Assembly (NCBI GenBank): GCA_021800255.1
Contig: JAJYZC010000003.1
Coordinates: 44,475 to 108,474, forward strand
Source of the DNA: Acidobacteriota bacterium
Lineage (GTDB): Bacteria > Acidobacteriota > Terriglobia > Terriglobales > Acidobacteriaceae
DNA: 64,000 nucleotides
Direction: 5' to 3'
Below are positions 2,907 through 34,600 of this stretch, piece after piece. The notes under the pieces were generated by a model. The model was not told where the DNA came from and did no database searches. It saw only the letters and a program-made list of their open reading frames with translations. The position numbers and the translations under genes were made by a program. Position 1 is the first letter of the stretch, and each line of letters starts with the position of its first letter.

Positions 2907-3033
2907 GGTCTGCGGCTGGCGAACGTGGGCGCAAATTGCCGTGGGCGGGCCGAAGAAGGGTATTGTGTGCGCCCGATGCGGTTCGGCACGAGGCGAGAGG
3001 AATTTTGCGCAGCCGGGAATAACCGTATAATCG

Positions 3034-4688: not shown

Positions 4689-4703
4689 AAGAAAAGGACG
4701 TCC

Positions 4704-17325: not shown

Positions 17326-18672
17326 TCAGCAGCGCACAATCTTGGGCGACTCGATGCCCATGGTTGCGTTGCGCGTATCCACGACGAGCTGCGAGCGGGC
17401 GACGATGGCGCGGTAGTCGTAGCTGGAGTGGTCGGTGACGATGACCACGGCGTCGTACTGGCCGAGGTTGTCGAGCGGCGTGCTGGTCATGTTCAGGTCG
17501 TAGTGGCGGCCGCGGCCGACGGTGGGAAAGTAAGGATCGTTGTAAGCGACGACCGCACCCTTGGCGCGCAGCAGCTCGATGATGGTGAGCGAGGGCGACT
17601 CGCGCAGGTCGTCCACATCGCGTTTGTAGGCCAGGCCCAGGACCAGCACCTTCGATCCCTTTAGGGCTTTGCCTTGCTGGTTGAGAGCGGCGGCAATCTG
17701 GTCGAGCACGAAATAGGGCATGGCGGTGTTGATTTCGCCGGCCAGCTCGATGAAGCGGGTGCGAAAGTCGAACTCGCGCGCCTTCCAGGAGAGATAGAAG
17801 GGATCGATGGGGATGCAATGGCCGCCCAGGCCGGGGCCTGGATAGAAAGCCTGGAAGCCGAAGGGCTTGGTTTTGGCCGCCGCGATGACTTCATGAATGT
17901 CGATGCCCATCCTCATGCAAAGCTGCTTGAGCTCGTTGACGAGGGCGATGTTGACCGAGCGGTAGATGTTTTCGAGCAGCTTGGTCATCTCGGCCACGGC
18001 GGGGCTGCTCACGCGAACCACGTGGCGGAAGATGGCGCCGTACATGGCGGCGGCCAGCCCGGCAGCCGCTTCCCCACAGCCGCCCACCACTTTGGGTATG
18101 TCGCGGCGGTCGACGACATCGTTGCCGGGATCTTCGCGTTCGGGTGAGAAGGCCAGGTGTAAGCCGGTTTCGCCGGCCCCGCGCGCGATCTTCAAGCCGT
18201 GAGGATTGCCGTCTTCCAGCAGCGGCGCAACGACCTCTTCGGTGGTACCGGGATAGGTGGTGCTTTCGAGCACGATCAACTGGCCCTCGTGAAGATGGGG
18301 CGCAATGGATGCGGCGGTTCCCGTCACGTAGCTCAGGTCGGGTTCGCGGTGCTCGTCGAGCGGCGTGGGCACGCAGATAATGACCGCATCCATGGCGGCG
18401 ATTTCGGAGTAGTCCGATGTGGCGCGGAAGCCCGCCTTTTGCGCCTCCTGAACGGCTTCAGGAGGGATGCGCACAATGTAGGATGCGCCCGCGTTGAGCG
18501 TCTTCACCTTGTCCGGCGCAATGTCAAAGCCCGTGACGCGGAACCGCTCGCCGCTGAACAACAGAGCCAGCGGAAGTCCCACATAGCCCATGCCGACGAT
18601 TCCGATGCGGGCCTCGCGGTTTTCCAACTTGCGTTTCAGCTCTTCCAGCCTGCCGGTCATCGTGGTTGCCAT
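17326..18672 (-). CDS. Nucleotide-sugar dehydrogenase (UDP-GlcNAc/GalNAc 6-dehydrogenase, WbpA/TviB-like)
   Basis: GMGYVGLP, ICVPTP, LESTTYPGTT, FSPERED, KLLENIYR, GPGLGGHCIP, GLAYKRD. Confidence 0.9.
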   Translation of the reverse strand: MATTMTGRLEELKRKLENREARIGIVGMGYVGLPLALLFSGERFRVTGFDIAPDKVKTLNAGASYIVRIPPEAVQEAQKAGFRATSDYSEIAAMDAVIICVPTPLDEHREPDLSYVTGTAASIAPHLHEGQLIVLESTTYPGTTEEVVAPLLEDGNPHGLKIARGAGETGLHLAFSPEREDPGNDVVDRRDIPKVVGGCGEAAAGLAAAMYGAIFRHVVRVSSPAVAEMTKLLENIYRSVNIALVNELKQLCMRMGIDIHEVIAAAKTKPFGFQAFYPGPGLGGHCIPIDPFYLSWKAREFDFRTRFIELAGEINTAMPYFVLDQIAAALNQQGKALKGSKVLVLGLAYKRDVDDLRESPSLTIIELLRAKGAVVAYNDPYFPTVGRGRHYDLNMTSTPLDNLGQYDAVVIVTDHSSYDYRAIVARSQLVVDTRNATMGIESPKIVRC

Positions 18673-18771
18673 ACTGTTGATTGTAAAGCTGCATGGCGAG
18701 ACGGGCAGAATAGTATTCTAAGCCGGTGCGGAGAGATCGCTGGCGCGCGCACCAGTTCTGGGGGAGGAACC

Positions 18772-19719
18772 TTGGCGAAATACCTGGTTACCGGCGTGGC
18801 CGGTTTTATCGGACGCTCGATCGCCGCGGCGCTGGTGGAGCGCGGCGAAGATGTGCGCGGCATCGACAGCTTGATTACCGGCAAGCGCGCCAATCTGATC
18901 GGGCTGGAGGCGATGGAATTCATTGAAGGCGACCTGGCCGATCCCTTGGTCTGCGTGCGGGCCTGCGCCGGCGTGGAGATCGTCTTCCACGAGGCCGCGC
19001 TGGCTTCGGTTCCGCGTTCCGTGGCCGATCCCCTGGCCACCCACGTAAACTGCGTGAACGCCACGCTCAATTTGCTGGTGGCGGCCCGGGCTGCCGGGGT
19101 GCGGCGCATGGTTTACGCGGGATCGTCGTCGGCCTACGGAGACACACCCACGCTGCCCAAGCACGAGCGGATGGCGCCCAACCCCATCAGCCCCTACGCT
19201 GCGGCCAAACTGGCCGGCGAATACTACATGCGCTCCTTTGCGCGCGTTTACGATGTGGAAACGGTGACCTTGCGCTACTTCAACGTCTTCGGTCCTTACC
19301 AGGACCCCAGCTCACAGTACTCCGGCGTGCTGGCCGTCTTCTGCCGCAAGATGCTGGCCGGCGAACAGCCGATCATCCACGGCGACGGCGAGCAGAGCCG
19401 TGATTTTACTTACATCGATAACGTTGTGCAGGCTAACCTGCTGGCTGCGGCGGCGCCGGCTGAAAAGGTATCAGGCCAGGCGATAAACCTGGCGATGGGC
19501 GAGCGATTTACCTTGAACCAGACCTTCGAGATTTTGCGGGAACTCACTGGTTATAAGGGTGAGCCGGCGTACGCTCCTCCCCGCGCCGGCGATATTCGCC
19601 ACTCTCTGGCCGACATTCGGCTGGCCGGTGAGCTGCTCGGCTACCGGCCAGCTGTGGGTTTCCGCGAGGGGCTGCGCAGGACCGTGGAGTGGTACCGGGC
19701 GGCAGGGTTGGCGTCTTAG
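18772..19719 (+). CDS. NAD-dependent nucleotide-sugar epimerase (WbpP/TviC-like SDR)
   Basis: TTG start after GGGGAGG; LVTGVAGFIG, SSSAYG, SPYAAAK, RYFNVFGP, GDGEQSRDFTY. Confidence 0.9.
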   Translation: MAKYLVTGVAGFIGRSIAAALVERGEDVRGIDSLITGKRANLIGLEAMEFIEGDLADPLVCVRACAGVEIVFHEAALASVPRSVADPLATHVNCVNATLNLLVAARAAGVRRMVYAGSSSAYGDTPTLPKHERMAPNPISPYAAAKLAGEYYMRSFARVYDVETVTLRYFNVFGPYQDPSSQYSGVLAVFCRKMLAGEQPIIHGDGEQSRDFTYIDNVVQANLLAAAAPAEKVSGQAINLAMGERFTLNQTFEILRELTGYKGEPAYAPPRAGDIRHSLADIRLAGELLGYRPAVGFREGLRRTVEWYRAAGLAS

Positions 19720-20016
19720 GGCTGTGAACAGCCCCCTGGAACGATCCCAGAATATGCGTGTGATTTTGAGGCTTATGAGAAGTGGCATTTTCTTAAGGGA
19801 ATGCCGCTTGGCTGTGTGCTTTTGGTACAGCAATTCTGGAGCCGTTGTACCGTCGGCTGCGAAACTCCGGGATTTTTGTCTCATTCTGATGTGATGCACA
19901 ACACATACGGCCCTCCCCGAATCGACGAAAATTGCGCAAACCCCTTTTCAGGCGATTTTTGCTTCCGCTAGCCGGGAATTGCCTCGTGCGAGGGCTCTTG
20001 GAACCGAGGTGTTCCC

Positions 20017-22551
20017 GTGCAAGACGCTCCCAATGTTCCGCAGGATTCTTCGCCCGCAGCCGGGCTGCGGCCCACGGCGAATGTGCGGCGGCAGGACGCC
20101 TCGGTTTCCTTGCGCGAGTTATGGCGGGTTCTGATGCGCCGCTGGCGCTTAGTTGCGGGCATTGAGGGCGGCTTGTTGCTGGCGTGCCTGCTGTATTGCC
20201 TGATTGCTCCTAACCAGTACGACGCCACCGCCAGCGTGGAACTGCGCACCGCGCCGGCCTCGCCGTTGAGCCTAAATGCGGCCGAGCCGCTGCTTTCGGC
20301 TTCGATTCTTTCCTCTTCCATCGAGATGGAGACGCTGGCAGGCGTTTTGCGCAGCGACCGGCTGGCCTGGACGGTGATTACCGGGCTGAAGCTCTACCAG
20401 GCGCCGGGCTTCCGGGGCAGCTTTGCCCGCCGTTTCCCCGGGTTTCGGCCCCAGACACCCTCACCGCGCGCTGAAGCCTGGCTGCTGAAGAGGTTTGCGT
20501 GGCGATTGCACGTGGAGATCCTGCCCCACACGCTGCTGGCGAGGATTCGCTTTCGCTCCGGGGACGCGGCGTTGTCGGCGGCCGTGGTGAACGCGCTGAT
20601 CCGCGCCTACAACGAGCAGGACCGTGAGTCGCAGGTCGAGGCCACCGAGCAGGCCTCGGCGTGGCTGGAGGAGCAACTGAGGGCCTTGAAGGCGCGCGAA
20701 GAGCAGGATGATCGCCGTCTGACGGAATTCGAGGACAGGCACGGCATCCTGAGCACTCCGGAGACGCTGGTCAACGGCCAGCCCAGTGAGGCTGAGCAAA
20801 GCCCTTTGGAGATGGAGATCGACGAGTTGGGCCGTCAGTTGGTGGCCGCCACGACGGAGCGCATTTTGTGCGAGGCAGAGTACCGCGCCGCCGCCGGGGG
20901 CGATCCGGAGATGGTGATCGCTGCCGACCCGCGCCTGCAGGCCCAGAGCAGCAGCTTTCCGACCTCACTGCTCCAGCAGCTTCGCGCCCAGCGCAGCAGC
21001 TTGGAGCAGGAACAGGCGCAACTGAGCGCCGAGCACGGACCGAATTTCCCTCGCGTGGTGGAGATTGACCGTGAGCTCACAGACCTGAGCCGGCAAAAGA
21101 AGGCCGAGGACGCCAGGCTTGTAGAGCGGTTCCGCGTGAACTGGCAGACGGCGGTTGCACGCGAACAGCTTGTGCGCAAGAGCCTGGAAGAAGCCACCCG
21201 CGAAGGCATGAAGCTGAACCAAGCGGCAACCGAATACACGGCCATGCGCCAGGAAGCCGGCTCCAGCCACGAGCTTTATGTGCGAGTGCTGGAGCGGGTG
21301 GAGGAAGCAGGATTGTCGGCCGGCATCCACGCTTCGAATATCTCGGTGGTGGACTACGCCCGCCAGCCCGTAAAGCCCGCAGCTCCCAATCTGCCGCTTT
21401 ACATGGCCATCACCTTTTTCGCCGGACTTTGGCTGGCGATGGGAGGCGCGCTCATGATGGAATCGATTCATCCCTCCAAAATCGCTGTGGCGGCGGCACT
21501 GCTCGCGGTGCTGGCGGCTGGCTCGCTGGCTCACGGCCAGGCGCCGACGCCCAGCACCTCGGGGCTGCCCACCGGGGTGGCCAGCTTTCCGCTGTCGCAT
21601 GAAACCAAAAATTTGCCCAACGCCAAGAAAGCGCCGCTGATATGGGGGAACCCGGCGGGCGGAGCGCAGACCGGCGCGCCGCCGTTTACGGTGCCGCAAT
21701 CCGGCTTACCGATGCCGGCGCCGATCAGCCCCGGAGACTTCCTCGACGTGAGCGAGTATCACACGCCGGAGTTTCATTCACTGGTGCGGGTCTCCGAAGA
21801 AGGGACCGTCACGCTGCCTATGATCGGCGAGATCAAGGTGGGCGGAATGGGCGAGCTGGCAGCCGCGCATGCCATTGAATCGGCGCTGGTGGCCAAGGGC
21901 ATGCTGCTCCATCCGCTGGTAACGGTGCTGGTGACCGCTTACGCCGGTCAGGATGTAAGCGTGCTCGGCGAGGTTGCCCGTCCGGGCGTCTATCCTTACA
22001 CCTATCATCACCGGCTGCTGGACCTGATCGCGGCGGCCTCCGGCCTCACGCCCGGCGCCGGCCGCCTGGTGAACATTTTTCACGCCAGCGATCCCAAGAC
22101 GCCACATGCGGTGGTGCTGGACCCCAGCGGAACCGACCCCAACGGAGATCACAACCCGGAATTACTCCCCGGCGACACCGTGCAGGTGACCCGCGCGGGG
22201 CTGGTGTACGTGGTGGGCGAAGTGATCCGGCCAGGCGGATTCGCGGTCGATCCGGTACAGAAGCTGACGGTGGTCCAGGCGCTGGCGCTGGCCTGGGGAC
22301 CGTCGCAAAACGCAGCCCTCACGAAGGCCGTGCTCATCCGCGAGCAGAAGGGCGGGCGCACCATCACCAGGCTCAACCTGAAACGATTGCTCCGCGGCCA
22401 GGATCCCGATGAACTGGTTCATGACCGCGACATTATCTACGTACCCGAATCGGTAGCCAAGAACCTGGTGAACGAGACCATGGAGTCGGCCATTCAATCC
22501 ACCATTGGCGTCTCCATCTACTCCGCGTTGGTGTATTCGCAGAGGTATTGA
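20017..22551 (+). CDS. Fusion of polysaccharide co-polymerase (Wzz/GumC/Wzc N-terminal part) and OPX/Wza polysaccharide export protein
   Basis: aa 30-485: SLRELWRVL, TM1, coiled coil, NISVVDYARQP..PAAP, TM2. aa ~570-844: ISPGD.L.V...TPE...VRVSEEGTVTLPMIG Poly_export domain and two SLBB repeats. One continuous frame. Confidence 0.85.
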   Translation: MQDAPNVPQDSSPAAGLRPTANVRRQDASVSLRELWRVLMRRWRLVAGIEGGLLLACLLYCLIAPNQYDATASVELRTAPASPLSLNAAEPLLSASILSSSIEMETLAGVLRSDRLAWTVITGLKLYQAPGFRGSFARRFPGFRPQTPSPRAEAWLLKRFAWRLHVEILPHTLLARIRFRSGDAALSAAVVNALIRAYNEQDRESQVEATEQASAWLEEQLRALKAREEQDDRRLTEFEDRHGILSTPETLVNGQPSEAEQSPLEMEIDELGRQLVAATTERILCEAEYRAAAGGDPEMVIAADPRLQAQSSSFPTSLLQQLRAQRSSLEQEQAQLSAEHGPNFPRVVEIDRELTDLSRQKKAEDARLVERFRVNWQTAVAREQLVRKSLEEATREGMKLNQAATEYTAMRQEAGSSHELYVRVLERVEEAGLSAGIHASNISVVDYARQPVKPAAPNLPLYMAITFFAGLWLAMGGALMMESIHPSKIAVAAALLAVLAAGSLAHGQAPTPSTSGLPTGVASFPLSHETKNLPNAKKAPLIWGNPAGGAQTGAPPFTVPQSGLPMPAPISPGDFLDVSEYHTPEFHSLVRVSEEGTVTLPMIGEIKVGGMGELAAAHAIESALVAKGMLLHPLVTVLVTAYAGQDVSVLGEVARPGVYPYTYHHRLLDLIAAASGLTPGAGRLVNIFHASDPKTPHAVVLDPSGTDPNGDHNPELLPGDTVQVTRAGLVYVVGEVIRPGGFAVDPVQKLTVVQALALAWGPSQNAALTKAVLIREQKGGRTITRLNLKRLLRGQDPDELVHDRDIIYVPESVAKNLVNETMESAIQSTIGVSIYSALVYSQRY

Positions 22552-22554
22552 GCG

Positions 22555-23775
22555 ATGAGAAGGGTTGCGTGGCGGCTGCTGGTGCTCTTCGCCTTCACCA
22601 TTCCCTGGGAGTATTCCCTGAATTTGGGCGCTCCGCTGGGCAATGTGGCGCGCATCGCAGGATTGCTGCTGCTGCTGGCCGCTGTTCCCGCCGTCCTGCA
22701 GGCCGGACGGATGCGTCTCCCGGGTGCGCTTGGGTGGGTGGTGCTGGTCTTCTATCTCTTCTTTTGCTGCACGTATTTCTGGACCATCGATCCGGCCGCA
22801 ACCCTGGAAAAGATGCGCGGCTATTTTCAGGAGATGATGATCGTCTGGCTGGTGTGGGAGTTTGCCGAGAGCTCCGGCGACTTGCGCACCCTGCTGCGCG
22901 CCTACGTGGCTGGTTCCTGGGTGCTGGCCGCGCTTACCGTCGCCAACTTCAGTTCCGCTGCGGCGATCGCTGCCAGCCAGATCCGCTTTGCCGCCTACGG
23001 GCAGGACCCTAACGATGTGGCGCGTTTTCTCGATCTTGGATTTCCGCTGGCGGCCCTGCTGGTAAACAGCGAGCGGCGCTGGCCCGGCCGCCTGCTGGCG
23101 CTGGGCTATCTGCCGCTGGGCCTATTTTCCGTTTTGCTCACCGCCTCGCGCAGCGGGTTTCTGGCCGCCGTGATGGCGTTCACGGGGTGCAGCTTTCTGC
23201 TGGCGCGCGGGCATGCCAAGAGCGCGCTGGCGTGGATTCTTGCTTTGCCCGCCATAGCGGCGGCTCTTTGGTTCATGGTTCCGAGTGATACTCTGGCGCG
23301 CCTGGCGACCATCCCTCAGCAGCTTGCGGGCGGCGACCTGAATCAACGGCTGAACATCTGGTCGGCGGGCTGGCGCGCGTTTGTGCAAGCGCCGCTGTTG
23401 GGCACAGGCGCGGGCACCTTTGTCAGCGCGGCGGGAACGTCGTCGCTCGATACGGCTCACAACACGGCGCTCGCCATTCTCGTTGGCGGCGGGCTTTGCG
23501 CTTTATTCCTGGCGGCAGCCATCGTGGCGCTGGTGGCGCGCGCAGCCCTCCAAACCCAAGGGGCCTTGCGGCTGGCTTTGGTGACCGCCCTGCTGGTCTG
23601 GATCGTGACATCGCTGGTCCTGACCGTGGAGGAGAGCCGCACCACTTGGCTGTTGTTTGCCTTGATTGCCCTTGCCGGACGGGTTGCCGCAGAGGATCCC
23701 GAGGCCCTTGCCGAATGCTTTTCCAGTTCAGTCCCGCTGCATGAGCTGGCCGCGGCAGCAACCGCGGTTGTGTAG
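22555..23775 (+). CDS. O-antigen ligase/Wzy polymerase-like membrane protein
   Basis: Multiple TM helices; DPND, LTASRSG, R..IW..G...F...PLLGTGAG, AHN motifs. Confidence 0.85.
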   Translation: MRRVAWRLLVLFAFTIPWEYSLNLGAPLGNVARIAGLLLLLAAVPAVLQAGRMRLPGALGWVVLVFYLFFCCTYFWTIDPAATLEKMRGYFQEMMIVWLVWEFAESSGDLRTLLRAYVAGSWVLAALTVANFSSAAAIAASQIRFAAYGQDPNDVARFLDLGFPLAALLVNSERRWPGRLLALGYLPLGLFSVLLTASRSGFLAAVMAFTGCSFLLARGHAKSALAWILALPAIAAALWFMVPSDTLARLATIPQQLAGGDLNQRLNIWSAGWRAFVQAPLLGTGAGTFVSAAGTSSLDTAHNTALAILVGGGLCALFLAAAIVALVARAALQTQGALRLALVTALLVWIVTSLVLTVEESRTTWLLFALIALAGRVAAEDPEALAECFSSSVPLHELAAAATAVV

Positions 23776-23808
23776 ACCGGCGGATCGGTTTTCTCCACTC
23801 GGACTGCT

Positions 23809-25170
23809 ATGTTTTCCGCTCCTCAAATCGCGCCGCCTTGCAAAGATTCCAGCGTGAACCGCAGCATCTTTCGCGCCGCCACATCGGTGGGCGCGGCGGG
23901 GATTGTGGTAAAAATCGCGGCGGTGTTCAAGGAGATTGCTGTAGCCGGCGTTTATGGCCGCTCTGACGCCATGGATGCCTTTCTGGCCGCGGCGCTCATT
24001 CCCGGCCTGCTCGTCAACCTCATCTCCGAGTCGATGAACCAGGCGCTTGTGCCCACGCTGATCCGGGTGCGGGAGCACGAAGGCCGCGAGCGCGCGCAGC
24101 AACTGCTCTCCATCTCCATGCTGTGGGTGTGCCTGCTGCTCGTGGCCGCTTCGGGCGCAATGGCCCTCGCCGCGCATGGCGTTTTCCCGCTGATCGCTTC
24201 GCATTTTTCTCCAGCAAAAATGGCGCTCTCGATCCGGCTCTTTTATGCGCTGTTGCCGGTGGTCCTGATGACGGGAATCGCCAGCAACTGCACGGCGGTT
24301 TTGAACACGCTGGACCGTTTTGCGCTGCCCGCGCTGGCGCCGATGGCGATTTCCGTCTCCATCCTTCTCGGAGTGCTGGCCTGGAGCGGCCGGCTGGGAA
24401 TCTGGGCCATGGTCTACTCCACGCTGGCCGGCGCGGCGATTCACGCGGGTCTCATGGCCTGGATGATGAACGCGCACGGCTACCGCTTCCGTCTGCGCTG
24501 GTATGGAATGACGGAGGCTACGCGCGAGGTGGGGCGCCAGTACGGGCCGGTGCTGGTGAGCGGAGTGGTGGCCTCGGGCGGCTTGGTCGTGGATCAGGCA
24601 ATGGCCGCCATGCTGCCCGCCGGAAGCGTCTCGGCGCTGGTCTACGCCACGCGCTTTGTCAGCGTAGTGCTGACGCTGCTGGCCGGCGCGGTCGCCACGG
24701 CCGTCACGCCCTACTTCTCGCGCCTGATCGCCTACCGGGATTGGAGCGGCTGCCGCCACACGTTGCGCACCTGGGTTCGGATCACGGCGCTGGTTTCAGC
24801 GCCCATCGCGGCGCTGCTGATGGCGGGCGCGCACTTCCTTGTCCGCATCACCCTGCAGCACGGAGCATTTGGCCGGCGCGACACGGCCGTGGTCGCCCAA
24901 GTGCTCATCATGTTCGCCATTCAGATTCCGTTCTTTGCCGTCAGCCGGGTCTTTTACCGCTTTATCGTCGCCATGCGGCGCACCGAACTGATTCTTTACT
25001 GCGGCATTCTCAATCTTGGACTGGATGTGGCGCTGAACCTGCTGCTGATGCACTGGTTCGGCGTGGCTGGAATCGCATTGGCCACTTCACTGTGGACGGT
25101 GAGCACGTTTTTCTACCTTTGGTATTGGTCGCGGAGGCTTTTGACGGAAGCAAGTTTAAGAGCGGTTTAG
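23809..25170 (+). CDS. MurJ/MviN-family lipid-linked oligosaccharide flippase
   Basis: KEIAVA..YG.S.AMDAF..A..IP, VD...A..L..GSVSAL.YA.R, LQHGAF. Confidence 0.82.
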   Translation: MFSAPQIAPPCKDSSVNRSIFRAATSVGAAGIVVKIAAVFKEIAVAGVYGRSDAMDAFLAAALIPGLLVNLISESMNQALVPTLIRVREHEGRERAQQLLSISMLWVCLLLVAASGAMALAAHGVFPLIASHFSPAKMALSIRLFYALLPVVLMTGIASNCTAVLNTLDRFALPALAPMAISVSILLGVLAWSGRLGIWAMVYSTLAGAAIHAGLMAWMMNAHGYRFRLRWYGMTEATREVGRQYGPVLVSGVVASGGLVVDQAMAAMLPAGSVSALVYATRFVSVVLTLLAGAVATAVTPYFSRLIAYRDWSGCRHTLRTWVRITALVSAPIAALLMAGAHFLVRITLQHGAFGRRDTAVVAQVLIMFAIQIPFFAVSRVFYRFIVAMRRTELILYCGILNLGLDVALNLLLMHWFGVAGIALATSLWTVSTFFYLWYWSRRLLTEASLRAV

Positions 25171-25240
25171 ACCGGAGCCGCGAGAAGCGCGGAGAGAGAA
25201 CGTTCTGGATGACCACTGCGAAAAACGCACCGGAGGGGAT

Positions 25241-26026
25241 ATGACGCTGCCGAAGCCTGCACAGTATCTGCTTCGTTGCGACGATCTCTGCCCCACGGCC
25301 GGCGCGGAACGGTGGCGGCGTTTGCAGGCATGGATCGAGGAGTTCGGAATCCAACCCATTCTCGCCGTGGTTCCCGACAACCGTGATCCGGATTTGCAGT
25401 ATGAGCCGCCTGACCCCGAGTTTTGGGTGCGCATGAGGACGATGGAGGCCGCCGGCGCGGCCATCGCATTGCACGGCTACCGGCATCTGTGCACGAGCGC
25501 GGGCCGCAGTCTGATGCCCCTGAACCGCCGCTCCGAGTTTGCCGGCGTTCCCATCAATATGCAGCGCGAGTGGATCCGCGCAGGTCTGCGCATTCTCCGC
25601 GATCGCGGCCTCAACCCGCGCCTGTGGGTCGCGCCGCGCCATGGCTTCGACCGCGGAACGCTCGCCGTGCTCCGGGCCGAGGGAATCAGCCTGCTCTCGG
25701 ACGGCTTGGCGCGCGTCCCTTTTCTTCGCGGCGGCCTCACCTGGATTCCGCAGCAGCTTTGGGCTCCTATGAAAAAGTCGAAGGGGCTGTGGACCATTTG
25801 CGTTCATCCCCACACGGTTCGCGAATCGGAGTTGGAGGAGCTGCGCGGCTTTCTCAGCCGCCATTCGATGCAGTTCACCTCAGTGGAGCGCGTGCTGGAC
25901 GAGTTCGAGCCTGCCCGGCTCAGTTTGTGCGAATCTGCCTACTCCCGTCTCGCGCTGTGCCGGGTGAAAGTCTCCGGCGCGCGCAAGAGCCTCCGGCGCG
26001 AGCTACGAAGAGCCGCTTCCGGTTAG
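25241..26026 (+). CDS. DUF2334/polysaccharide deacetylase-like (NodB fold) protein
   Basis: YLLRCDDLCP, IALHGYRH, WVAPRHGFD. Confidence 0.78.
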   Translation: MTLPKPAQYLLRCDDLCPTAGAERWRRLQAWIEEFGIQPILAVVPDNRDPDLQYEPPDPEFWVRMRTMEAAGAAIALHGYRHLCTSAGRSLMPLNRRSEFAGVPINMQREWIRAGLRILRDRGLNPRLWVAPRHGFDRGTLAVLRAEGISLLSDGLARVPFLRGGLTWIPQQLWAPMKKSKGLWTICVHPHTVRESELEELRGFLSRHSMQFTSVERVLDEFEPARLSLCESAYSRLALCRVKVSGARKSLRRELRRAASG

Positions 26027-27166
26027 AGCGGCTGCGCCGGCGGACGCAATGGAGAGTGATTTTCCCGCGAGCAACTCCGCGTAAAGCCGTTCCCAGCGGT
26101 CAAGAACGGCATCGAGGCTGAAGCGCTCAATGGCCTGGCGTCGCGCCTGCTCGCCCATGATGCGGCGCTGGTCCGGCGACCTTTGCATGAGGGTGGTCAT
26201 TGCCTGAGCCAGTGCGGCAGCATCGCCGGGCGCGGCGAGCCAGCCAGTCAGCCCATGGGCAATCACCTCCCGCGAGCCAGGAACATCCGTGGCGATGGCC
26301 GGTAAGGCGCAGGCCGCAGCTTCGATCAGCCCCATCGGCAGCCCCTCCCACCGCGATGAGAGCACAAAGGCATCGGCGGCTTGAAGCCAGCGCGTCAGGC
26401 CGGGAACGAAACCTAAAAAGCGCACCCGGCGCTCCAGGCCGAGCCGCGCGGAAAGAGCAAGCAGCTCGCTGCGAAGCGGACCGTCGCCCGCGATCAGCAG
26501 CCGCGCCGGCTCAGGGGTTGCGGACATGGCGCGGAGGAGGGTGGGATAGTCCTTCACCGCGTCCAGCCGTCCGGCGGCCAGCCACAAAAATTTGTCTACA
26601 AGGTTTAGTTCTTGGCGCGCCGCTGCTCGAATGGACGGATCCGTCCGCCAGGCTTCGATGTCCGCTCCGTTGGGGAGAACGGAGAGTTTGCTTCGGCTCA
26701 CCAATCCGGCGGATAGATGCGCGCGGGCGACAGATTGGCTCACGGCGGTGACATGATCTGGCAGCCAGCCGCTCAGCCGGTAGCCCAGCCGCCGTCCGAG
26801 CGGTCCGGTCCACGAGCTGTGCAGCGTATCAATCACCACGGGCGACGGCGCGCACAGCCGCGACCAACGGGCCAGCCATGCGGCGTGGGGCAGGTGCGCA
26901 TGAACCACCTCCGGCCTCTCGCGCCGCAGCCAACGATGGAAGCGAACCCACCCCCGCGGGTCGGCCCATCCCTTGCGCATCTCCAGGCTGAGGAATGCCA
27001 CGCCTGCATTGGCCAGCTCGTGAGCCGCCTGTCCGCCGGAACCGGTGAGGGCAACCACGCTCACACGCCAGCCGCGCCCGCGCAGCCCTTTGGCCAGCAG
27101 CATGACCTGCCGTTCCGCTCCGCCGATGCGGTCAAGGCCGGGAATGACCAGGGCAGCGTGACTCAT
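26003..27166 (-). CDS. GT4 (GT-B) glycosyltransferase
   Basis: IGGAERQV, HAHL, AGRLDAVKDY, SSRWEGLPMGLIEA, C-terminal RFSLDAVLDRWERLY. Confidence 0.92.
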   Translation of the reverse strand: MSHAALVIPGLDRIGGAERQVMLLAKGLRGRGWRVSVVALTGSGGQAAHELANAGVAFLSLEMRKGWADPRGWVRFHRWLRRERPEVVHAHLPHAAWLARWSRLCAPSPVVIDTLHSSWTGPLGRRLGYRLSGWLPDHVTAVSQSVARAHLSAGLVSRSKLSVLPNGADIEAWRTDPSIRAAARQELNLVDKFLWLAAGRLDAVKDYPTLLRAMSATPEPARLLIAGDGPLRSELLALSARLGLERRVRFLGFVPGLTRWLQAADAFVLSSRWEGLPMGLIEAAACALPAIATDVPGSREVIAHGLTGWLAAPGDAAALAQAMTTLMQRSPDQRRIMGEQARRQAIERFSLDAVLDRWERLYAELLAGKSLSIASAGAAALTGSGSS

Positions 27167-27420
27167 GCGCGCCTTTGCGCATAAGCGGCGTCGATCAACC
27201 TCTCATAGGCCTCAATGGCGTGCTCAAAGGCGAACTCTTCGCCGGCTTGATGCTCTAAATGTTGCAGGTTCCTGGGGCTGTGGTAACGCAGCGGGATACG
27301 AACGAGGAAGTCGCAGACAACAGCGCCGAACTTGGAGAGGATTGTGGAAAACTCCTGAACTAGAAGTAAGAAGGCGAGCAGCAAGGCTGCAAATACGGAA
27401 TTTACGAGGCGAGCAAGCAT
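27163..27420 (-). CDS. Small hypothetical membrane protein (85 aa) ending in a GT4-type C-terminal helix
   Basis: ATG at 27420 after GGTGGA; hydrophobic N-terminus; stop overlaps the next GT start (ATGA). Confidence 0.5.
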   Translation of the reverse strand: MLARLVNSVFAALLLAFLLLVQEFSTILSKFGAVVCDFLVRIPLRYHSPRNLQHLEHQAGEEFAFEHAIEAYERLIDAAYAQRRA

Positions 27421-27769
27421 GAAAATTCCACCGAACTTAGAGGATTCACAGCCTGCTCCGGAACCGGCCAGGTGGCCGCAGTTAAGCAACGCATTTTCAA
27501 CGGGGGAGTGGATGCAGTCTGACTGTGAATCCGGATGATTTAAGGCCCGGTTGGTGGTCCCTGTCCCAATATGAGCCACTTTTCCTCTACGGGTGAGCGG
27601 GAAAAGTACCCAAACTGGGCCTTTCGTTGATTTAAAAGAAACTGTACAGAAAGGAAACAACGTTGCGCTTTAAATGTCAAGGGGTTAAATCAGGCGAGGA
27701 AAAATAGGCTGAATATTACTTTTGGGCCTATGAAAATGGATCCGGACCGGGGCTCAGTTTTCTGCCTGG

Positions 27770-28882
27770 CTAACCCTCAACTTTCGCTCTTTCCAGGTTG
27801 GAAGGCGGCAATGCAACTGACTGCGGGATTGCCGGCTCGCGGCGGCTGGAAAACTGGTGGTGAAACCTCTGGCCTGGACGCAGAGCGACTAATGCCGCGT
27901 GGAGGGAGGCGGAGAGCGCATCGGCGCTAACCTCGTGCGCGAGCCAGGCTCCGGGCCGGCCGCGGAGCAGGTCCACGACGCCACCCGATGCTGGCAGGGC
28001 TACGATGGGCAGACCGGCGGCTGCGGCTTCGAGCAGGGCGTTGGGCATTCCCTCGTGGCGCGAGGAGAGCACAAACAAGGTGGCCCCTGGGAAGAAGACG
28101 TAGGGGCAATCGACGCGGCCCGCGAAGCGCACGGCCGCTTCGAGCCCCAGCGAGCGGCACTGGGCTTTGAGCGCCGCCTCCTCAGGTCCTGCGCCGGCAA
28201 TGAACAGATCAGCCTGCGGGAAATTCTGCCGCACGCCGGCAAGCGCACGCAGCAAGAGGTCAAACCCCTTTTCCGGCGCCAGCCTTCCCACGGCCAGCAG
28301 ATGCGGGCCAGGACCGGCCCACTGCTCCGAATCAGATTGAACCGCGCGGATTCCTTCCAGGTCCACCGGATTGGGCAGAACGGAGATCAGATCGGAGCCA
28401 ATGTCCAACTGGCTGGCCAAATCCTCGGCCATGGCGCGCGACTGGCAGATGATGCGGTCCGCACGGCGGTAGAGCAGCCTGTAGAGCAGGCCGGTGAAAC
28501 TAGGCAGGCCGCCAAAGGCCAGAGCAGCCGAAACGGTCGCGTTCTGGCGCACCAAAACCCGAGTTCCGCGCGGGAAGAAGGGGCGCAGTAGAAGCACGAG
28601 AAAATTCACGTGCGCTATACCGGAGAGGATCACGCCGGGCCGCAGGCGGCGCACCAGGCGCAGCAGTTTGAAGGCTGCGGCGCGCACTCGGGTAGCGCCC
28701 AGGGGATGAATGACTACCCAGGGGGGCAGTTGGGCGGCGCCAGCATCGGGCTGGGTAATCAGACCGAGGTGTAGTTCATACTTTTCGCGCGACAATCCTC
28801 GCGCAAGCAGCGTGGTCACCTGCTCTGCGCCGCCGCCTCCAAGATGCGGGATCAGCAGCAGGATTCTCAACGGTTGGGCCAT
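27770..28882 (-). CDS. GT4 glycosyltransferase, apparently lacking its terminal helix
   Basis: RILLLIPHLGGGGAEQV, VGRLAPEKGFD, SSRHEGMPNALLEA; tail SSRREPAIP... is unlike GT4. Confidence 0.88.
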   Translation of the reverse strand: MAQPLRILLLIPHLGGGGAEQVTTLLARGLSREKYELHLGLITQPDAGAAQLPPWVVIHPLGATRVRAAAFKLLRLVRRLRPGVILSGIAHVNFLVLLLRPFFPRGTRVLVRQNATVSAALAFGGLPSFTGLLYRLLYRRADRIICQSRAMAEDLASQLDIGSDLISVLPNPVDLEGIRAVQSDSEQWAGPGPHLLAVGRLAPEKGFDLLLRALAGVRQNFPQADLFIAGAGPEEAALKAQCRSLGLEAAVRFAGRVDCPYVFFPGATLFVLSSRHEGMPNALLEAAAAGLPIVALPASGGVVDLLRGRPGAWLAHEVSADALSASLHAALVALRPGQRFHHQFSSRREPAIPQSVALPPSNLERAKVEG

Positions 28883-29027
28883 GCGTTTCCTGGTAGTGGA
28901 CGATTTTGGGACATTCGAGTGTACTTGTGCTGTGTTCTGGGTCACACATTTCAGGCTGTCCAAAAATGATACATTTTTTGTAATCTCGCTCGAAATTTGA
29001 CGAATTCCGGCTCATACGGGGATTACC

Positions 29028-30236
29028 TTGGCAGCTTCACCAGCCCTCGAACGCGACCCGCCTTTGCCGGCTCTTGGAGCCAAGCGGCCGCCTATTGTGG
29101 TGGGCGTCACCCATCCGCAGACCTGCCTGGTGCTGGGCGCGCGCTTACGGGCGCTGCGGGAGGCGGGCTTTCGCGTCACGGTGGTTTCCGGTCCCGGCGA
29201 GTTGCTGGAGCGCACGGCCGCGCGCGCAGGCGTGGAGTGGGTTGCGATTCCCATGCGGCGGGGGATTGCGCCGCTTGCGGATATGCTCTCCTTGCTGCTC
29301 CTGTGGCGGCTGCTGGGCAGGCTGAAGCCGGAGGTAGTGGAATTCAGCACACCCAAGGCGGGACTTTTAGGTACCCTGGCGGCCAGATTGCGCGGCGTTC
29401 GGCGGCGCGTCTACCTGCTGCGCGGGCTGAAGCTGGAAACCACCAGCGGAAGCAAGCGCCGCATCCTGCTGGCGGCCGAGCGGCTGGCCGCCCGGTGCGC
29501 GCACATGGTCTTATGTAACAGCGCAAGCCTGCGCGACCGGGCGCTGGAGCTGCGTCTGGCGCCGCCAGCCAAGTTGCGCCTGCTGGGCTACGGGAGCAGC
29601 AACGGCGTGGACGTGGAGCGGTTTTCGCCGGGACCGTGCGACCTGCGCGAGCGGCTGGGGTTTCGACGCGAAGCTCCAGTGGTGGGCTTCGTGGGCCGGT
29701 TGAGCCGCGACAAAGGGGCGCCGGAGCTGATCGATGCCTTCGACGCCATCCTGGCGGTGGAGCCGCAAGCGCGACTCTTGCTGGTTGGCTGGTTCGATGC
29801 CGGGGAGGATGCGCTGGACGGCCGGCTGCGCGCACGCATTGAGAGGCATCCGGGCATTCATTGCGCCGGCTTGGTTGAGGATACGGCGCCTTATTACCGC
29901 GCCATGGACGTGCTGGTTTTGCCCACTTGGCGGGAGGGGTTTCCGAATGTTGTGCTGGAGGCGGCAGCCACCGGGATTCCCGCCATTACCACACTGTCGA
30001 CGGGCGCGCGCGACGCCGTGGTACACGAGGTGACGGGTCTGCTCATCCCGCCCGGCCGCCCGCAAGCTATCGCCGAAGCCGTGTTGAAGCTGCTCAGCGA
30101 CCCTGAACGGCGGAGGCGCATGGGGCGGGCTGCGCGCGCCTGGGTCATTGAGCACTACACCGAGCAACGGGTTTTGGGGCTCACCACCGCATATTACCGG
30201 AGTTTGGCGGATCCGGCAGCCGCCCAGACAAACTGA
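29028..30236 (+). CDS. GT4 glycosyltransferase (PglA/CapM-like)
   Basis: STPKAGLLG, SSNGVD, GFVGRLSRDKG, PTWREGFPNVVLEA. Confidence 0.9.
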   Translation: MAASPALERDPPLPALGAKRPPIVVGVTHPQTCLVLGARLRALREAGFRVTVVSGPGELLERTAARAGVEWVAIPMRRGIAPLADMLSLLLLWRLLGRLKPEVVEFSTPKAGLLGTLAARLRGVRRRVYLLRGLKLETTSGSKRRILLAAERLAARCAHMVLCNSASLRDRALELRLAPPAKLRLLGYGSSNGVDVERFSPGPCDLRERLGFRREAPVVGFVGRLSRDKGAPELIDAFDAILAVEPQARLLLVGWFDAGEDALDGRLRARIERHPGIHCAGLVEDTAPYYRAMDVLVLPTWREGFPNVVLEAAATGIPAITTLSTGARDAVVHEVTGLLIPPGRPQAIAEAVLKLLSDPERRRRMGRAARAWVIEHYTEQRVLGLTTAYYRSLADPAAAQTN

Positions 30237-30330
30237 AAACGGCGCTTCCCATTTGCCGTTCCAGCGGCGAAGCAGTCACAATCTCTGAGTAAGAAAGATT
30301 CCCGCACACCCCTTTCACGAGGAGAATCGT

Positions 30331-31536
30331 ATGAACGAACCACGGCGGCTGCCGCCCGTCTGGCTGATGGGCCTCACCAACGCTCTCTTTGGGTTCACGG
30401 GCGGATTCGCTGTGGTCACGGCGCCGGAGATGCTGGCGGCACAGGGAGTTCCAGGAGGGCACATTGCGGTCATTACCGCGACGGTTCTCTCGCCGGGTTT
30501 CTGGGCCTTTGCGGTAGCGCCGATGCTCGATGTGCGCTTCAGCCGCAGAAGCTATGCGCTGCTGTTTGGGACTCTGGCGGCCGCGGCCGTGGGTTACACC
30601 GTCTTCAACCACGCGCACCCGGCAATGGTGGAGGGGGTAATGCTCGCCGGCATGGTGGCGGCCACGCTGTATCAGGGCGCGGTGGGCGGGTGGATGGGCA
30701 GCCTGATCTCGAAGGACCAAGACAGCCGGCTGGGCATGTGGTTTGCCGTAGCCAATACCGGCGCCAGCGGGTTGATGATCCTCTTCGCGGGCAGCATTGT
30801 CGAGCACTTTCGGCCCGCCGTGGCGGCTGGGCTGGTGGGCGGGGCAATGCTCGTGCCCATGCTGCTGTTCCTAGCGGTTCCGGCGCCTGGACCGGACCGG
30901 CGGCTGGCGCGCGAGAGCTTTGGCCGCTTCTGGGGCGAGGTAGCGTCGCTGCTGAAGCGGCGGGAGGTGCTGATCGCGCTCACGCTGTTTCTGCTGCCCT
31001 CGGCTTCCTTCGCGCTCACCAACGTGCTGGGCGGAGTGGGCAGAGCCTTTTACGCCAGCCGGAACATGGTGAGCCTGTTTGGCGGTGCGGGCGCGGTGGC
31101 CGCGGGGCTGGCCGGCAGCTTTTTGTTGCAGCCGCTGGCGAAGCGATTCGCGTTGCGCCCCCTTTATCTGGGCGTGGGGATTACCGGCGGCTTGTTCACG
31201 CTCAGCCTGCTGGCTCTGCCACGCGCCGTGTGGACTCTGGGGCTGGCGATGACGGGCGAGAACCTCTTTCAAGCCCTGGCGTTCGCCGTCGGCAACGCCA
31301 TCAGCTTTGAGGTGATCGGCCCGGAGAACCCGCTGGCGGCTACGCTCTTCACGCTGTTGATGGCGGCGGCGAACCTGCCCATCGTGTACATGGGCTATAT
31401 CGACGGCCACGGGTACGACTGGGACGGCGTGACGGGGAGTTTCTTGACCGACGCGAGCATCAGTATCGCCGTCTGCCTGTTTCTCTACTGGGCGCTGCAT
31501 TGCTGGCGGCGGCCTTCAGACTATGTTGAAAGCTAG
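30331..31536 (+). CDS. MFS transporter (AmpG-like)
   Basis: About 12 TM helices; FAVAPMLDVRFSRR; ATLFTLL..AANLPI.YM. Confidence 0.8.
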   Translation: MNEPRRLPPVWLMGLTNALFGFTGGFAVVTAPEMLAAQGVPGGHIAVITATVLSPGFWAFAVAPMLDVRFSRRSYALLFGTLAAAAVGYTVFNHAHPAMVEGVMLAGMVAATLYQGAVGGWMGSLISKDQDSRLGMWFAVANTGASGLMILFAGSIVEHFRPAVAAGLVGGAMLVPMLLFLAVPAPGPDRRLARESFGRFWGEVASLLKRREVLIALTLFLLPSASFALTNVLGGVGRAFYASRNMVSLFGGAGAVAAGLAGSFLLQPLAKRFALRPLYLGVGITGGLFTLSLLALPRAVWTLGLAMTGENLFQALAFAVGNAISFEVIGPENPLAATLFTLLMAAANLPIVYMGYIDGHGYDWDGVTGSFLTDASISIAVCLFLYWALHCWRRPSDYVES

Positions 31537-31646: not shown

Positions 31647-34600
31647 TCAGAAGATCAGCTTGGCCGAGATCTGCAACTGCCGCGGTCCCCATAGGATGCT
31701 GTTGGTCGTATTTGGCTGTGCGAAGTCCTCGTAGGCCGATGACGGTGTATAGGGCCCAATGCAACCGTCAAAGCTCGATCCCGCCGGCACGCTCGCCGTT
31801 GCCGGGCAACTGCTGCCCTTGGCTCCGGGCGCGAAGTACTGCGCATAGGTCGAGTTCACGCCCGCAATAATCTTTTGATTAAGCAGGTTGAATGCTTCGC
31901 CGATGACTTGAAAGGACGCCCGCTCATGAATGGGAATATCGCGGGTAACCCGGAAGTCGATGTCTCGCAATCCAGGGCCTGGCTGGCTGTTGCGCTGAAT
32001 CTCCGGCGGCCGGCCCATGGTGGGCGCGCCCGAGCCCGAGCTCATCGCTCCGCCGTAAATTCCGCCGTCGGCCTGCGCCGTAGCGCCTGAACCCGCCGGA
32101 ACCGAGCCAGCCACGCCGGCTACGATCGGCAGCCCCGTCGACTCGGTCGCGGATCCCGAGAAGACAAACCCGTCCAGCCCCTGTTTCATCCAAGGATTGC
32201 CCTGCATGAACATGGGCTGCCACACCAAAGTGCCCGTGAAGCGGTTGCGCATGTCCAGGTCGGAACGTCCATACTCGGCCATCAGGTTGTTGGGGTCCAG
32301 CACCGGATTGCCCCCATAGAACGTACCGTAGGTGCCGGCAACCTGATCATCGTCCATGGCCCTCGCCCAGGTGTAGTTGAGCAGCACCTCCAGCCCGTGA
32401 TCGTACTGCCGGTGCACGGTAACTGCCATCGAGTTGTACCACGAGTTGGCCACGCTGAAGCCGGTATTGAGCGAGGTCAAGGAGGGGTCGATCCGGTCCG
32501 ACACCAAATAGTACGGCACCGTTACCAGCGGCATGGCCCCATTCGGGTACTTGATGTAAAACGAGTGCAACCCGTGCGGCTTCTGTCCCACCAGGTTGGC
32601 ATCGATAAATACCGGCAGCCGCTGTGCCCGCGACCCCACGTAGCCGATGGAAAGCATCATCTGCCCCGGCAGCGCCTGCTCCACCGCCAAGGAGAACTCG
32701 TAGGCCAGCGGCGGTACAAAGTCCGGCGACAGTCCGTGGAAGCTGGAGCTCGCCGGTGCGCTCTCGCTCGTCACCTGAGGCCCCGTTCCTCCGCTGGGAT
32801 AAATCGCTTGGCTCAGCGGCGGCCCGGTCGCGGGGAAAGGAACGTTGGGGAATTTCAGCGCCGGTTGGTTCGACGCCGTGCACGCCCCGCTGCAGCCCAA
32901 GTAGTTGTAGTTGATCTGGTACTCGCCGTTCTCCACACGCATTGCGTAGTAGGTGCTGCCCTGGTTCAGCGCCGAGAAAACGCCGAACCCTCCGCGCAGG
33001 ACCGTTCCCGGCACGGGGTTCCACGCGAAGCCAATGCGTGGCTGTACCCGGTCCTCCACATTCTTGATGGTCGTGTTGTACTTGGTGGCCAGCGCCGATG
33101 ACGTGTTGGGGATGGCCGGCGGCGGCGTCAACTGCAGGTCGTAACGCACCCCCAGGTTCAGGGTCACCAACGGGCTTACCTTCCAGGTATCCTCAGCAAA
33201 TCCGTCGTACATCTTCATCCAGAAATTGTCTGACCCGGCCAAGCCCGACGATACCGGGTGCTGCTTGTCGATGGTCTGCACAAAGGTGTAGTAATGAGAG
33301 CCCGCATAGGGATCCGTGTCCCCTGCCTGACCCGCGAATGCGTCCTGCACCCAGTTCTGGAACTCCTGGGTAATCGTCCCCGTGTAGTTGTACAGGCCAC
33401 CGCCCTGATAGAGATCGATCATCACCTCGTGCACCAGGTTGATATCTCCGCCGAACTTGAACGTGTGTCTGTCCTGCACCTTCGTGAATACGTCCGTGAT
33501 TTGGTAGCGGTGCTCGTCTGGCTCCGCCTTGCGGGGCAAGGCATTGGGCATTCCGTAGGTTTCCACGCCCATCCCCACGCTCGGTCCGGGCGCATTTGCC
33601 CCCGCCGTCTCCAGGTCGCGTCCCCACTGGAACATCAGGTCGTTGACCGCGGTGTTGGTGATCGTCGAAGTCCAGTGGGTAACAAAGAATCGCTCATGAT
33701 AGCTGGTGGGCGCATTGGTGCTCGGCGACGAGTTGGAAAAGGTCGGGCTCGGGTTGTACCCATAGGTGGTGTCGAAGTCCGCATAGTTGAAGTCCGCGTA
33801 GATGAGGTTCTTGCTGTTCAACTGATAGTCTACGCGCGGAAACAGGAGCGTCTCCTTGGCGAACCGCGACGGCGCAGCCTGCTGGCCGAGCAGAAACTTG
33901 ATCGCCGACGTACACTGCGCGCCGGTGATGGTCGCCGGGCACTGGGTTGGCGTTACGTCGGTGCTGCTCGTATACGTTCCCGCCGGCGTCAGCGACACGT
34001 TGTCGGTCTCGTAGTAGAGTGCCCGGCCCACGCGCCGGAAGTTGTCTGAGGTCAGAAAGTAAAAGAGCTTACCCTTCTTGAAAGGTCCGCCCACGCTCCC
34101 GCCAAACTCCTGCTGCTGGTGAATGGGCTGCGTCAGCAAGAATGAAACGGCGTGGTTGTACAGCACCGACCACTTGCTATAAGGATCCAGCGCATTCAGG
34201 CTGGGATAGCGCAAGTAGTAGAACAGGTCCCCGTGCAGCGTATCCGTGCCGCTTTTGGTGATCGCGTTCACCACACCCCCCGCCGCCTGCCCGAACTCCG
34301 CCGAGTAATCCGACGTCTCCGTCTGGAACTCCTTGATCGAGTCCAGACTGTAAACAAACGGCGCCCCCGACGCCCTGCCCCGCGCTTCGCTGAACAGCAT
34401 CTCGTTGTTGTTCGCTCCATCCACGTAGTTCTCGTTATAGAGTCCGCTGATGCCGTGGAAGCTCACCAGGCCACTGGTGCCGTCCTCGACCACGTTCGGC
34501 GCCAGCAGCACAAAATCGCTCCAGTTGCGCCCATTCACGGGCAGGTTACGAATGATCGCCTGGTCCACTACCTGCGAAACCTGCGTCTGCTCCACGTCCA

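Follow-up and report, generated by a model that had tools for sequence, protein, structure and literature searches.

Among the described systems closest to the one reported here is Wza-Wzc of Escherichia coli (PDB 2J58, 7NHR, 9R64), in which a helical polysaccharide co-polymerase (PCP) with two transmembrane (TM) helices, Wzc, carrying a bacterial tyrosine kinase (BY-kinase) and a Tyr tail, partners an outer membrane polysaccharide export protein (OPX), Wza, a lipoprotein with a Poly_export domain, two SLBB domains and a Wza_C helix, the two being encoded by separate genes of a Wzx/Wzy cluster. The complex is an 8:8 "octameric heterodimer" (PMC12881504), and it was only in 2026 that direct contacts between PCP and OPX and a first full structure of Wza-Wzc were reported (PMC12819527, PMC12881504). 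Separate genes are also found in the Class-3 systems of Myxococcus xanthus (WzaB/WzcB/WzpB and EpsY/EpsV/EpsX), where EpsV is another PCP without a kinase (PMC12004946) and WzaB depends on a lipid anchor together with a neighbouring beta-barrel porin of 18 strands (PMC12819527, PMC9603273, PMC9601211), as well as in the EpsE/EpsF pair of the Methylobacillus type, in which EpsF likewise has no kinase domain. In this study we analysed a stretch of 64,000 nucleotides from a soil/mine-drainage Acidobacteriota bacterium of the Acidobacteriaceae (assembly GCA_021800255.1, contig JAJYZC010000003.1, positions 44,475 to 108,474; the whole stretch is referred to below as the window), which contains a gene that encodes, in one reading frame, both members of the PCP-OPX pair of a Wzx/Wzy-dependent exopolysaccharide (EPS) pathway. 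Both modules and the pathway are textbook knowledge, and the fused architecture is without a description that we could find: a full-text literature search, which included OPX-classification and mechanism papers, returned no account of a PCP-OPX fusion, though an older mention is possible, and the initial annotation of this DNA had likewise known of no characterised example.

The gene and its parts are located in the window as follows:

20017-22551, plus strand: fused PCP-OPX gene, 844 aa, GTG start, TGA stop
20149-20205, plus strand: TM1, aa 45-63 (Kyte-Doolittle peak), preceded by an Arg-rich cytoplasmic N-terminus
20206-21390, plus strand: periplasmic PCP domain, aa 64-458, an alpha/beta base and long helices
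21391-21459, plus strand: TM2, aa 459-481 (Kyte-Doolittle peak aa 463-481)
21460-21480, plus strand: short cytoplasmic loop ESIHPSK, aa 482-488, n-region of the internal signal peptide
21481-21537, plus strand: TM3, aa 489-507 (Kyte-Doolittle peak), the retained Sec signal peptide of the OPX
21535-21540, plus strand: signal peptidase I (SPase I) site between G507 and Q508, predicted from conservation over 110 junctions and from the organism's own signals
21538-21723, plus strand: disordered Pro/Gly/Ser-rich linker, aa 508-569, its first ~35 residues conserved (QAPTPSTSGLPTGV...)
21724-21933, plus strand: Poly_export (PES) domain, aa 570-639, from Pfam and Foldseek
21949-22446, plus strand: two SLBB domains, about aa 645-722 and about aa 728-810
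22459-22548, plus strand: conserved C-terminal 30 residues, a low-confidence predicted helix with no Pfam Wza_C match

A GAGG motif lies 7 nt 5' of the GTG start codon, and eight Lys and Arg residues fall within aa 1-44, ahead of TM1. Pfam matches, counted only when above gathering scores, place the N-terminal half among the PCPs, with Wzz at aa 30-121 (28.1 bits, cut-off 25.5) and GNVR at aa 411-480 (35.8 bits, cut-off 27.7); the periplasmic region takes in Wzz and the start of GNVR, and two TM helices flank its helical domain. The C-terminal half belongs to the OPX proteins, matching Poly_export at aa 570-639 (47.3 bits, cut-off 28) and SLBB (58 bits, cut-off 27), with SLBB/SLBB_2 found as two stretches from aa 645. 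The best-scoring NCBIfam models are EpsF (TIGR03017, aa 31-486) and EpsE (TIGR03028, aa 570-813), at scores far below their equivalog cut-offs (117.4 against 422.75 for EpsF and 139.9 against 262.65 for EpsE). These results identify the N-terminal half as a Wzc-like co-polymerase lacking the kinase and the C-terminal half as a Wza-like export protein.

With regard to a BY-kinase of the PCP-2a (Wzc) type, no P-loop family was matched in Pfam and NCBIfam scans of the fused protein and no Walker A motif was found in it by pattern search; only 7 residues separate TM2 from TM3, where a Wzc-type PCP carries its kinase, and the kinase was readily picked up in those relatives that possess one. The lipobox pattern L-[AS]-[GA]-C, expected of a lipoprotein processed by signal peptidase II, is likewise absent from the fused protein by pattern search, its Cys being limited to residues 57, 61 and 285. 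The initial annotation had claimed the lack of Walker A, Tyr cluster and lipobox Cys, three hydrophobic segments, with nt 21481-21537 given for aa 489-507, and a Pro/Gly/Ser linker; the coordinates proved exact, the Kyte-Doolittle peaks agree with TM1, TM2 and TM3, aa 508-569 contain 13 Pro, 8 Ala and 7 Gly among 62 residues, and domain searches with the two halves returned the expected families.

Agreement with the E. coli proteins extends to both sequence and fold. PDB sequence matches are to the class-3 OPX WzaB of M. xanthus (9n9a, the best), Wza (2j58) and Wzc (7nhr), and in Foldseek searches the full-length AlphaFold model is matched by Wza chains at E about 2e-12 and by Wzc chains at E 3.7e-8, the best matches including chains A and I of the same Wza-Wzc entries (9r64/9r68), so that the assignment of the halves made in the initial annotation is upheld by fold as well, through chains of one solved complex. 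The secondary structure of this model comprises a TM1 helix (aa 32-66), an alpha/beta base and long helices to aa 431 (aa 184-431), TM2 (aa 459-483), TM3 (aa 488-504), disorder at aa 505-574, a beta-rich OPX part and a helix at aa 815-839. A separate model of the putative mature OPX (aa 508-844), built from a more diverse alignment, has a predicted local distance difference test (pLDDT) score of 80-90 in its core, with the first 59 residues disordered, and matches Wza at E 2.9e-20. It aligns over 305-324 columns with full-length Wza and over 267-269 columns with D4-truncated Wza (~40 fewer), which hints that the C-terminal tail may correspond to the outer-membrane helix of Wza. The terminal amphipathic helix of the initial annotation stands in part: a helix is predicted at aa 815-839, and its amphipathic nature is not established because pLDDT there is <45 and the hydrophobic moment low (<=0.28). 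In the homologues P0082 and P0120 the terminal ...VYSQRY is swapped for ...VYSQW followed by a Thr/Pro-rich extension of ~30-35 residues, possibly a frameshift or read-through into the spacer ahead of the Wzy gene.

Full-length homologues spanning both halves, whose existence the initial annotation had left to be looked for, are plentiful and keep TM3 and a small residue at -1. A search of 5.8 billion proteins gave 1344 matches at E <=1e-10 among 8000 candidates scored; the top 120 clusters show 68-99% identity at lengths of 798-874 aa (apart from one 700-aa fragment), all contain both sets of domains, and those members that are named at NCBI are metagenome-assembled genomes (MAGs) of Terracidiphilus. 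In a scan of one genome per GTDB species, built on close sequences and with fusions at 25-27% identity left out, 234 species genomes encode a relative of the fused gene, the best 80 of these 234 loci all being full-length (query residue 1 or 32 to 844) at 64-73% identity; these 80 are Terracidiphilus/Acidobacteriaceae MAGs, one of them a closed chromosome of 4.18 Mb. Given such full-length recurrence, in more than 120 protein clusters, the fused architecture is far beyond chance. Some members of the family carry a double COG name at JGI, and NCBI uses "SLBB domain-containing protein", which names the OPX half. Three metatranscriptome runs, from the same study as genomic runs containing the gene, held 0.00 of its sampled sequence words.

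The nature of TM3 is central to how the fused protein may work. In an alignment of 121 family members, column entropy over the block aa 481-500, which represents TM3, is 1.87 bits with insertions and deletions, compared with 0.54 for TM2 and 0.90 for TM1, placing TM3 among the most variable stretches, on par with the unconserved N-terminus; the residues just past TM3 (QAPTPSTSGLPTGV) are near-invariant. Over 110 distinct junctions (a slash below marks the putative cleavage point) the -1 residue is Ala in 96, Gly in 12, Ser in 1 and Pro in 1, hence A, G or S in 109, and +1 is Gln in all 110. Position -2 is polar (His 60, Arg 35, others), and -3 is never charged and, the two Phe excepted, aliphatic or small (Leu 35, Ala 24, Ile 15, Val 14, Gly 9, Thr 8, Met 3, Phe 2); the last charged residue, a basic one, typically stands 17 residues ahead of the site, a spacing that is short for a stable TM helix, with a Gly near -5/-6. 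In the window protein, K488 is followed by IAVAAALLAVLAAG and then S-L-A-H-G/Q, so that aa 482-507 have the layout of a Sec/SPase I signal peptide, that is, a basic n-region, a hydrophobic core (h-region) with a Gly as helix breaker, and a c-region, A-H-G, with an uncharged -3 and a small -1 residue, as defined in PMC3509430. Signals of this type are expected to have a core of 7-15 hydrophobic residues and small, uncharged residues at -3 and -1.

Other evidence comes from an exhaustive phmmer search of 1.84 billion representatives, which aligned the C-terminal half with stand-alone OPX proteins 310-420 aa in length, at identities of 36-48%. Among them, P0186 aligns from query aa 490 onwards, the aligned start being its own N-terminal signal (MKAILGAVLLVLSSAGAMFA/QAPS), and the signals of further stand-alone relatives end in VRA/Q, VHA/Q, ALG/Q and SSG/Q; distant fusions at 28-31% identity retain [AG]/Q. 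As a control, four genuine N-terminal signals encoded in the same window end in ARA/Q, ACA/Q, ASA/Q and CQA/Q. Because TM3 is variable yet signal-like and homologous to the N-terminal signals of stand-alone OPX proteins, these comparisons show it to be the original Sec signal peptide of the OPX, now internal, and the putative processing site is kept as strictly as in the relatives that are certainly secreted. The K-hydrophobic-AHG/Q pattern, in which the initial annotation had seen a resemblance to an SPase I site, is thus backed by conservation, by homology to N-terminal signals and by the organism's own A/Q sites. The start of the predicted mature OPX (21538-21640, aa 508-541) is strongly conserved as QAPTPSTSGLPTGVA..LPNPKEAP.VW, though disordered and of low complexity; a role in docking or in glycosylation would be a guess.

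We consider it rather probable, on these grounds, that the chain is cleaved into its PCP and OPX partners. TM1 and TM2 would enter the membrane as they do in PCPs generally, leaving the loop ESIHPSK on the cytoplasmic side, after which TM3 would serve as an internal N-in/C-out signal that re-starts Sec export of the OPX half, and SPase I would cut past A-H-G507, at G507/Q508. As to charge, the 7-residue loop contains one Lys and the 23 residues past TM3 have no positive charge. The products would be a soluble, non-lipidated OPX beginning at Gln508 and a PCP with three TM helices, which would assemble into the usual PCP-OPX conduit. Since the E. coli complex is 8:8, synthesis from one frame would supply matched amounts at one membrane site, and would do so without tyrosine-kinase control; in the subclade of the window, an internal GGAGG-ATG may additionally yield the same pre-OPX alone. 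The semi-tryptic N-terminus predicted for the mature OPX is QAPTPSTSGLPTGVASFPLSHETK, and an uncut chain would contain the junction-spanning sequence ...SLAHGQAPTPSTSG..., with IAVAAALLAVLAAGSLAHGQAPTPS... as its junction-spanning tryptic peptide.

Several points weigh against cleavage. The -3 residue is Leu or Ile in 50 of the 110 junctions, which is tolerated and is not the classic Ala, and the window protein has Gly rather than Ala at -1. An uncut OPX could be kept physically attached to the inner membrane by the 62-residue linker; the same linker is carried by stand-alone OPX relatives and is uninformative either way. A non-lipidated OPX would still have to reach or cross the outer membrane; the C-terminal tail gives no Wza_C match even at E up to 10, and no PgaA-like porin gene is seen in the window. 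Finally, confidence in the full-length AlphaFold model is low (pLDDT 61.6, predicted template modelling score 0.39), too low for it to inform on TM2-TM3 packing or PCP-OPX docking.

The chain may instead stay uncut, which we regard as unlikely though it ranks first among the alternatives to cleavage: TM3 would remain as a third membrane anchor and the linker would reach an OPX ring docked on its own PCP. To the same doubtful degree, the result would be a covalently closed, single-polypeptide trans-envelope channel made of n (eight?) copies of the 844-aa chain, with a kinase-free PCP ring leashed to an OPX ring. Such a channel would fit a single uninterrupted frame conserved in at least 80 species and a Pro/Gly-rich linker that is disordered in both models and, when extended, long enough to span the periplasmic domain of the PCP; there is also no lipobox to anchor the OPX elsewhere, and a PCP without a kinase has no phosphorylation switch of the kind used for Wzc octamerisation (PMC12881504), for which a tether could stand in. 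However, TM3 evolves as a disposable signal peptide would (see the entropies of TM3 and TM2 above), its hydrophobic core is short and includes a conserved Gly, the linker is not specific to the fusions, and the -1 and +1 residues are kept so strictly that an unused site would be hard to explain. Were the chain nevertheless uncut, it would rank as the first trans-envelope polysaccharide exporter in nature to consist of a single polypeptide, and only then as a new kind of machine.

A third reading, which we think improbable, and more so than the uncut chain, is that of two cistrons in one frame, in which the OPX of one subclade would arise mainly by initiation at M480 or M481, the full-length product being minor or regulatory. 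The candidate start is the following:

21441-21459, plus strand: internal Shine-Dalgarno-like GGGAGG (21441-21446), then 7 nt, then ATG ATG (21454-21459; M480, M481), within TM2

The GGGAGG is formed with the codons of G475-G476 (GGA GGC), and translation begun at M480/M481 would produce MMESIHPSKIAVAAALLAVLAAGSLAHG/QAP..., a normal pre-OPX whose signal peptide is N-terminal. The analysis covered 73 sequences, the window and 72 related loci, whose kinship makes the counts non-independent. The Gly-Gly dipeptide occurs in 34 of the 73, which belong to one subclade (mean pairwise identity 75%); in 33 of these 34 the first Gly is encoded by GGA, a codon that accounts for 14.7% of Gly codons in these open reading frames (ORFs), and in 32 an ATG or TTG lies downstream at a distance of 7-10 nt. 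Of 278 conserved degenerate columns, only 8 show one codon fixed to >=95%, and this is the sole Gly column with GGA above 62%, which suggests nucleotide-level selection for an internal Shine-Dalgarno start in what would be half of the family. On the other hand, the remaining 39 species analysed (VGAALLRES type) do not have the motif; because these keep the fusion, an internal start cannot be the general mechanism, and an SD-like GGAGG within Gly-Gly codons may have other causes. This conserved candidate start had been missed in the initial annotation, as had the sister fusions with a kinase described below. Cleavage, tethering and internal initiation are not fully exclusive of one another. A cleaved polyprotein or a tethered channel had been the two options of the initial annotation, whose interpretation was supported in each part that could be tested.

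That an assembly error, a recent frameshift or a decaying pseudogene joined two normal genes has a negligible chance of being true, even though fusions of adjacent genes in MAGs are often artefactual and the close relatives found are all MAGs, for the junction is identical, with no indel or joint, in independent Logan contigs that cover nt 20900-22300 and were drawn from four sequencing runs belonging to two studies (mine drainage, sediment), the best 80 loci are full-length on contigs up to a closed 4.18 Mb chromosome, the 120 clusters hold both domain sets, both halves are under strong purifying selection, and an analogous fusion is present in a Granulicella arctica genome on a 4.7 Mb contig with no MAG label at NCBI. 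These artefacts were accordingly ruled out.

The origin of the fused gene can be read from the closest stand-alone OPX, P0157 (352 aa), which is 49% identical to aa 564-840 of the window protein and is encoded on a contig (L083, positions 1-5133) with the order epimerase, PCP with BY-kinase, a 34-nt spacer with AGGAGG, OPX and Wzy. The epimerase is 61% and the Wzy 39% identical to those of the window; the PCP-kinase (770 aa) is 39% identical to window aa 30-487, and its match stops just past TM2, where the kinase linker starts, homology being resumed in the OPX. Since this syntenic relative has a Wzc with kinase and an OPX as adjacent genes, the comparison shows that the window fusion corresponds to this pair of genes after in-frame loss of kinase, stop codon and spacer. 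The proposal of the initial annotation that an OPX module occupies the position of the kinase is thereby supported. The deletion that made the fusion is old because it is common to at least 80 species.

Sister fusions were also found by phmmer. Besides distant kinase-less fusions at 28-29% identity (P0183, 840 aa; P0198, 800 aa), there are tri-modular proteins of 981-1217 aa with the order Wzz, GNVR, BY-kinase, signal-like TM, Poly_export and SLBB; a database search with one of them gave ~40 clusters of that type. One is P0291 of G. arctica (1066 aa), on the 4.7 Mb contig mentioned above, which NCBI names "polysaccharide biosynthesis tyrosine autokinase"; further members derive from Granulicella, Acidisarcina and Acidobacteriaceae MAGs. 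At their junction a Tyr cluster (DFYYYWGK...GY) is followed by R or K, a hydrophobic core and [AG]/Q. Another, P0163, was seen in two samples, where its contigs carry an EPS cluster that also includes Bac_transf, WecG, GT4 and Wzy. A fusion of this type occupies positions 8001-11180 of L081. In a neighbour-joining tree of the OPX domain, which has no support values, the window family groups with the stand-alone P0157, and the kinase-containing fusions form a separate clade together with P0183 and P0198. Because of this separate clade, the fusions that retain the kinase are probably independent, which is suggestive of at least two independent PCP-OPX fusions in the Acidobacteriaceae.

The genes surrounding the fused gene are:

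17326-18672, minus strand: UDP-glucose dehydrogenase, upstream cluster gene
within 18199-19719, plus strand: NAD-dependent epimerase, upstream cluster gene
22555-23775, plus strand: Wzy-type polymerase, directly 3' of the fused gene
23809-25170, plus strand: MurJ/Wzx-type flippase, next after Wzy
25241-26026, plus strand: DUF2334, conserved cluster
26003-27166, minus strand: glycosyltransferase of family GT4, conserved cluster
27770-28963, minus strand: GT4 glycosyltransferase, conserved cluster
29028-30236, plus strand: GT4 glycosyltransferase, completing the conserved cluster

This order, namely (UDP-glucose dehydrogenase), epimerase, fusion, Wzy, MurJ/Wzx-like flippase, DUF2334 and three GT4 genes, is kept across related loci, with Wzy found in 76 and the epimerase in 74 of the 81 loci. 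Because gene order is conserved in this way, the fused gene is shown to belong to a Wzx/Wzy-dependent EPS cluster. No BY-kinase, phosphatase, initiating phosphoglycosyl transferase or PgaA-like porin was recognised by Pfam among 40 ORFs scanned in the window, which includes the EPS cluster region at 17326-31536, and tblastn with the kinase domain found no BY-kinase in the best 80 related loci; porins of the PgaA-like type often lack a Pfam match and could sit elsewhere in the genome.

Some further observations concern the neighbourhood. An ORF of 165 aa (27163-27660, minus strand) has no Pfam match and a tblastn counterpart in 0 of 80 related loci. Two genes past the cluster (31647-35006, minus strand) there is a 1119-aa CarboxypepD_reg/OMP_b-brl_4 beta-barrel protein with a signal ending ...ARPARA/QTS; it is the sole barrel nearby, and the related loci stop before its position. 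A chemotaxis block (39535-45500, plus strand) encodes a CheA-CheW-receiver hybrid kinase of 864 aa and a soluble-looking methyl-accepting chemotaxis protein of 897 aa with two PAS and four HAMP_2 domains.

The fused family is conserved, recurrent and experimentally tractable. As the NCBI names of such proteins hide one half or the other, censuses of OPX or PCP proteins based on single domains will mis-count in abundant soil and peat bacteria. For Wzx/Wzy export it is still an open matter how PCP and OPX partners find each other, in what ratio, and whether cycling of the tyrosine kinase is indispensable. If the unsupported tree holds, the two partners appear to have been fused at least twice, in one case with loss of the kinase and in the other without, forming a system in which obligatory 1:1 coupling and kinase-independent PCP function can be tested; the same system can serve to test whether a bacterial polyprotein makes use of an internal signal peptide and, possibly, whether there is dual initiation within one frame.

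Compared with Wza-Wzc of E. coli, the window protein has the same two modules in the same kind of cluster and differs in its one frame, the lack of kinase, lipobox and Wza_C match, and the internal signal of SPase I type. As for OPX Class 1, its OPX half shows no Wza_C match at E up to 10, no lipobox and a low hydrophobic moment, yet it also has a conserved 30-residue predicted helix (pLDDT <45) and alignments with full-length Wza that are ~40 columns longer than with D4-less Wza. At Pfam level, where PMC9603273 defines Class 3 as Poly_export-SLBBn with neither Wza_C nor GfcC, it falls into that class; the paper itself reclassified at HHpred level. In contrast with the M. xanthus Class-3 systems, no porin gene of their type was recognised in the window, and the OPX half combines two SLBB domains with a 30-residue tail and aligns over more columns with full-length than with D4-truncated Wza. 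EpsE/EpsF of the Methylobacillus type, the best-scoring models for the two halves, differ in being separate, and the C-terminal 30 residues of the window protein lie beyond the EpsE model. The Wzc(kinase)-OPX fusions of the Acidobacteriaceae, such as P0291, share the single frame, the signal-like segment with [AG]/Q and the Wzx/Wzy-type clusters; they are uncharacterised, named for the kinase only at NCBI and ~30-36% identical to the window protein, from which they differ in keeping the BY-kinase with its Walker A motif and a YYYW Tyr cluster, their OPX domains forming the separate clade of the unsupported neighbour-joining tree.

The FbcH cytochrome b-c1 precursor of Bradyrhizobium japonicum, reportedly described by Thony-Meyer et al. 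in 1991, belongs to an unrelated pathway and consists of unrelated proteins, and its cleavage is said to have been shown experimentally, whereas that of the window protein is a prediction. It is nevertheless reported to be a membrane polyprotein with an internal signal peptide that is cleaved by signal peptidase, the signal standing past the last TM of the first protein, and in this way one gene is said to provide two 1:1 subunits of one complex.

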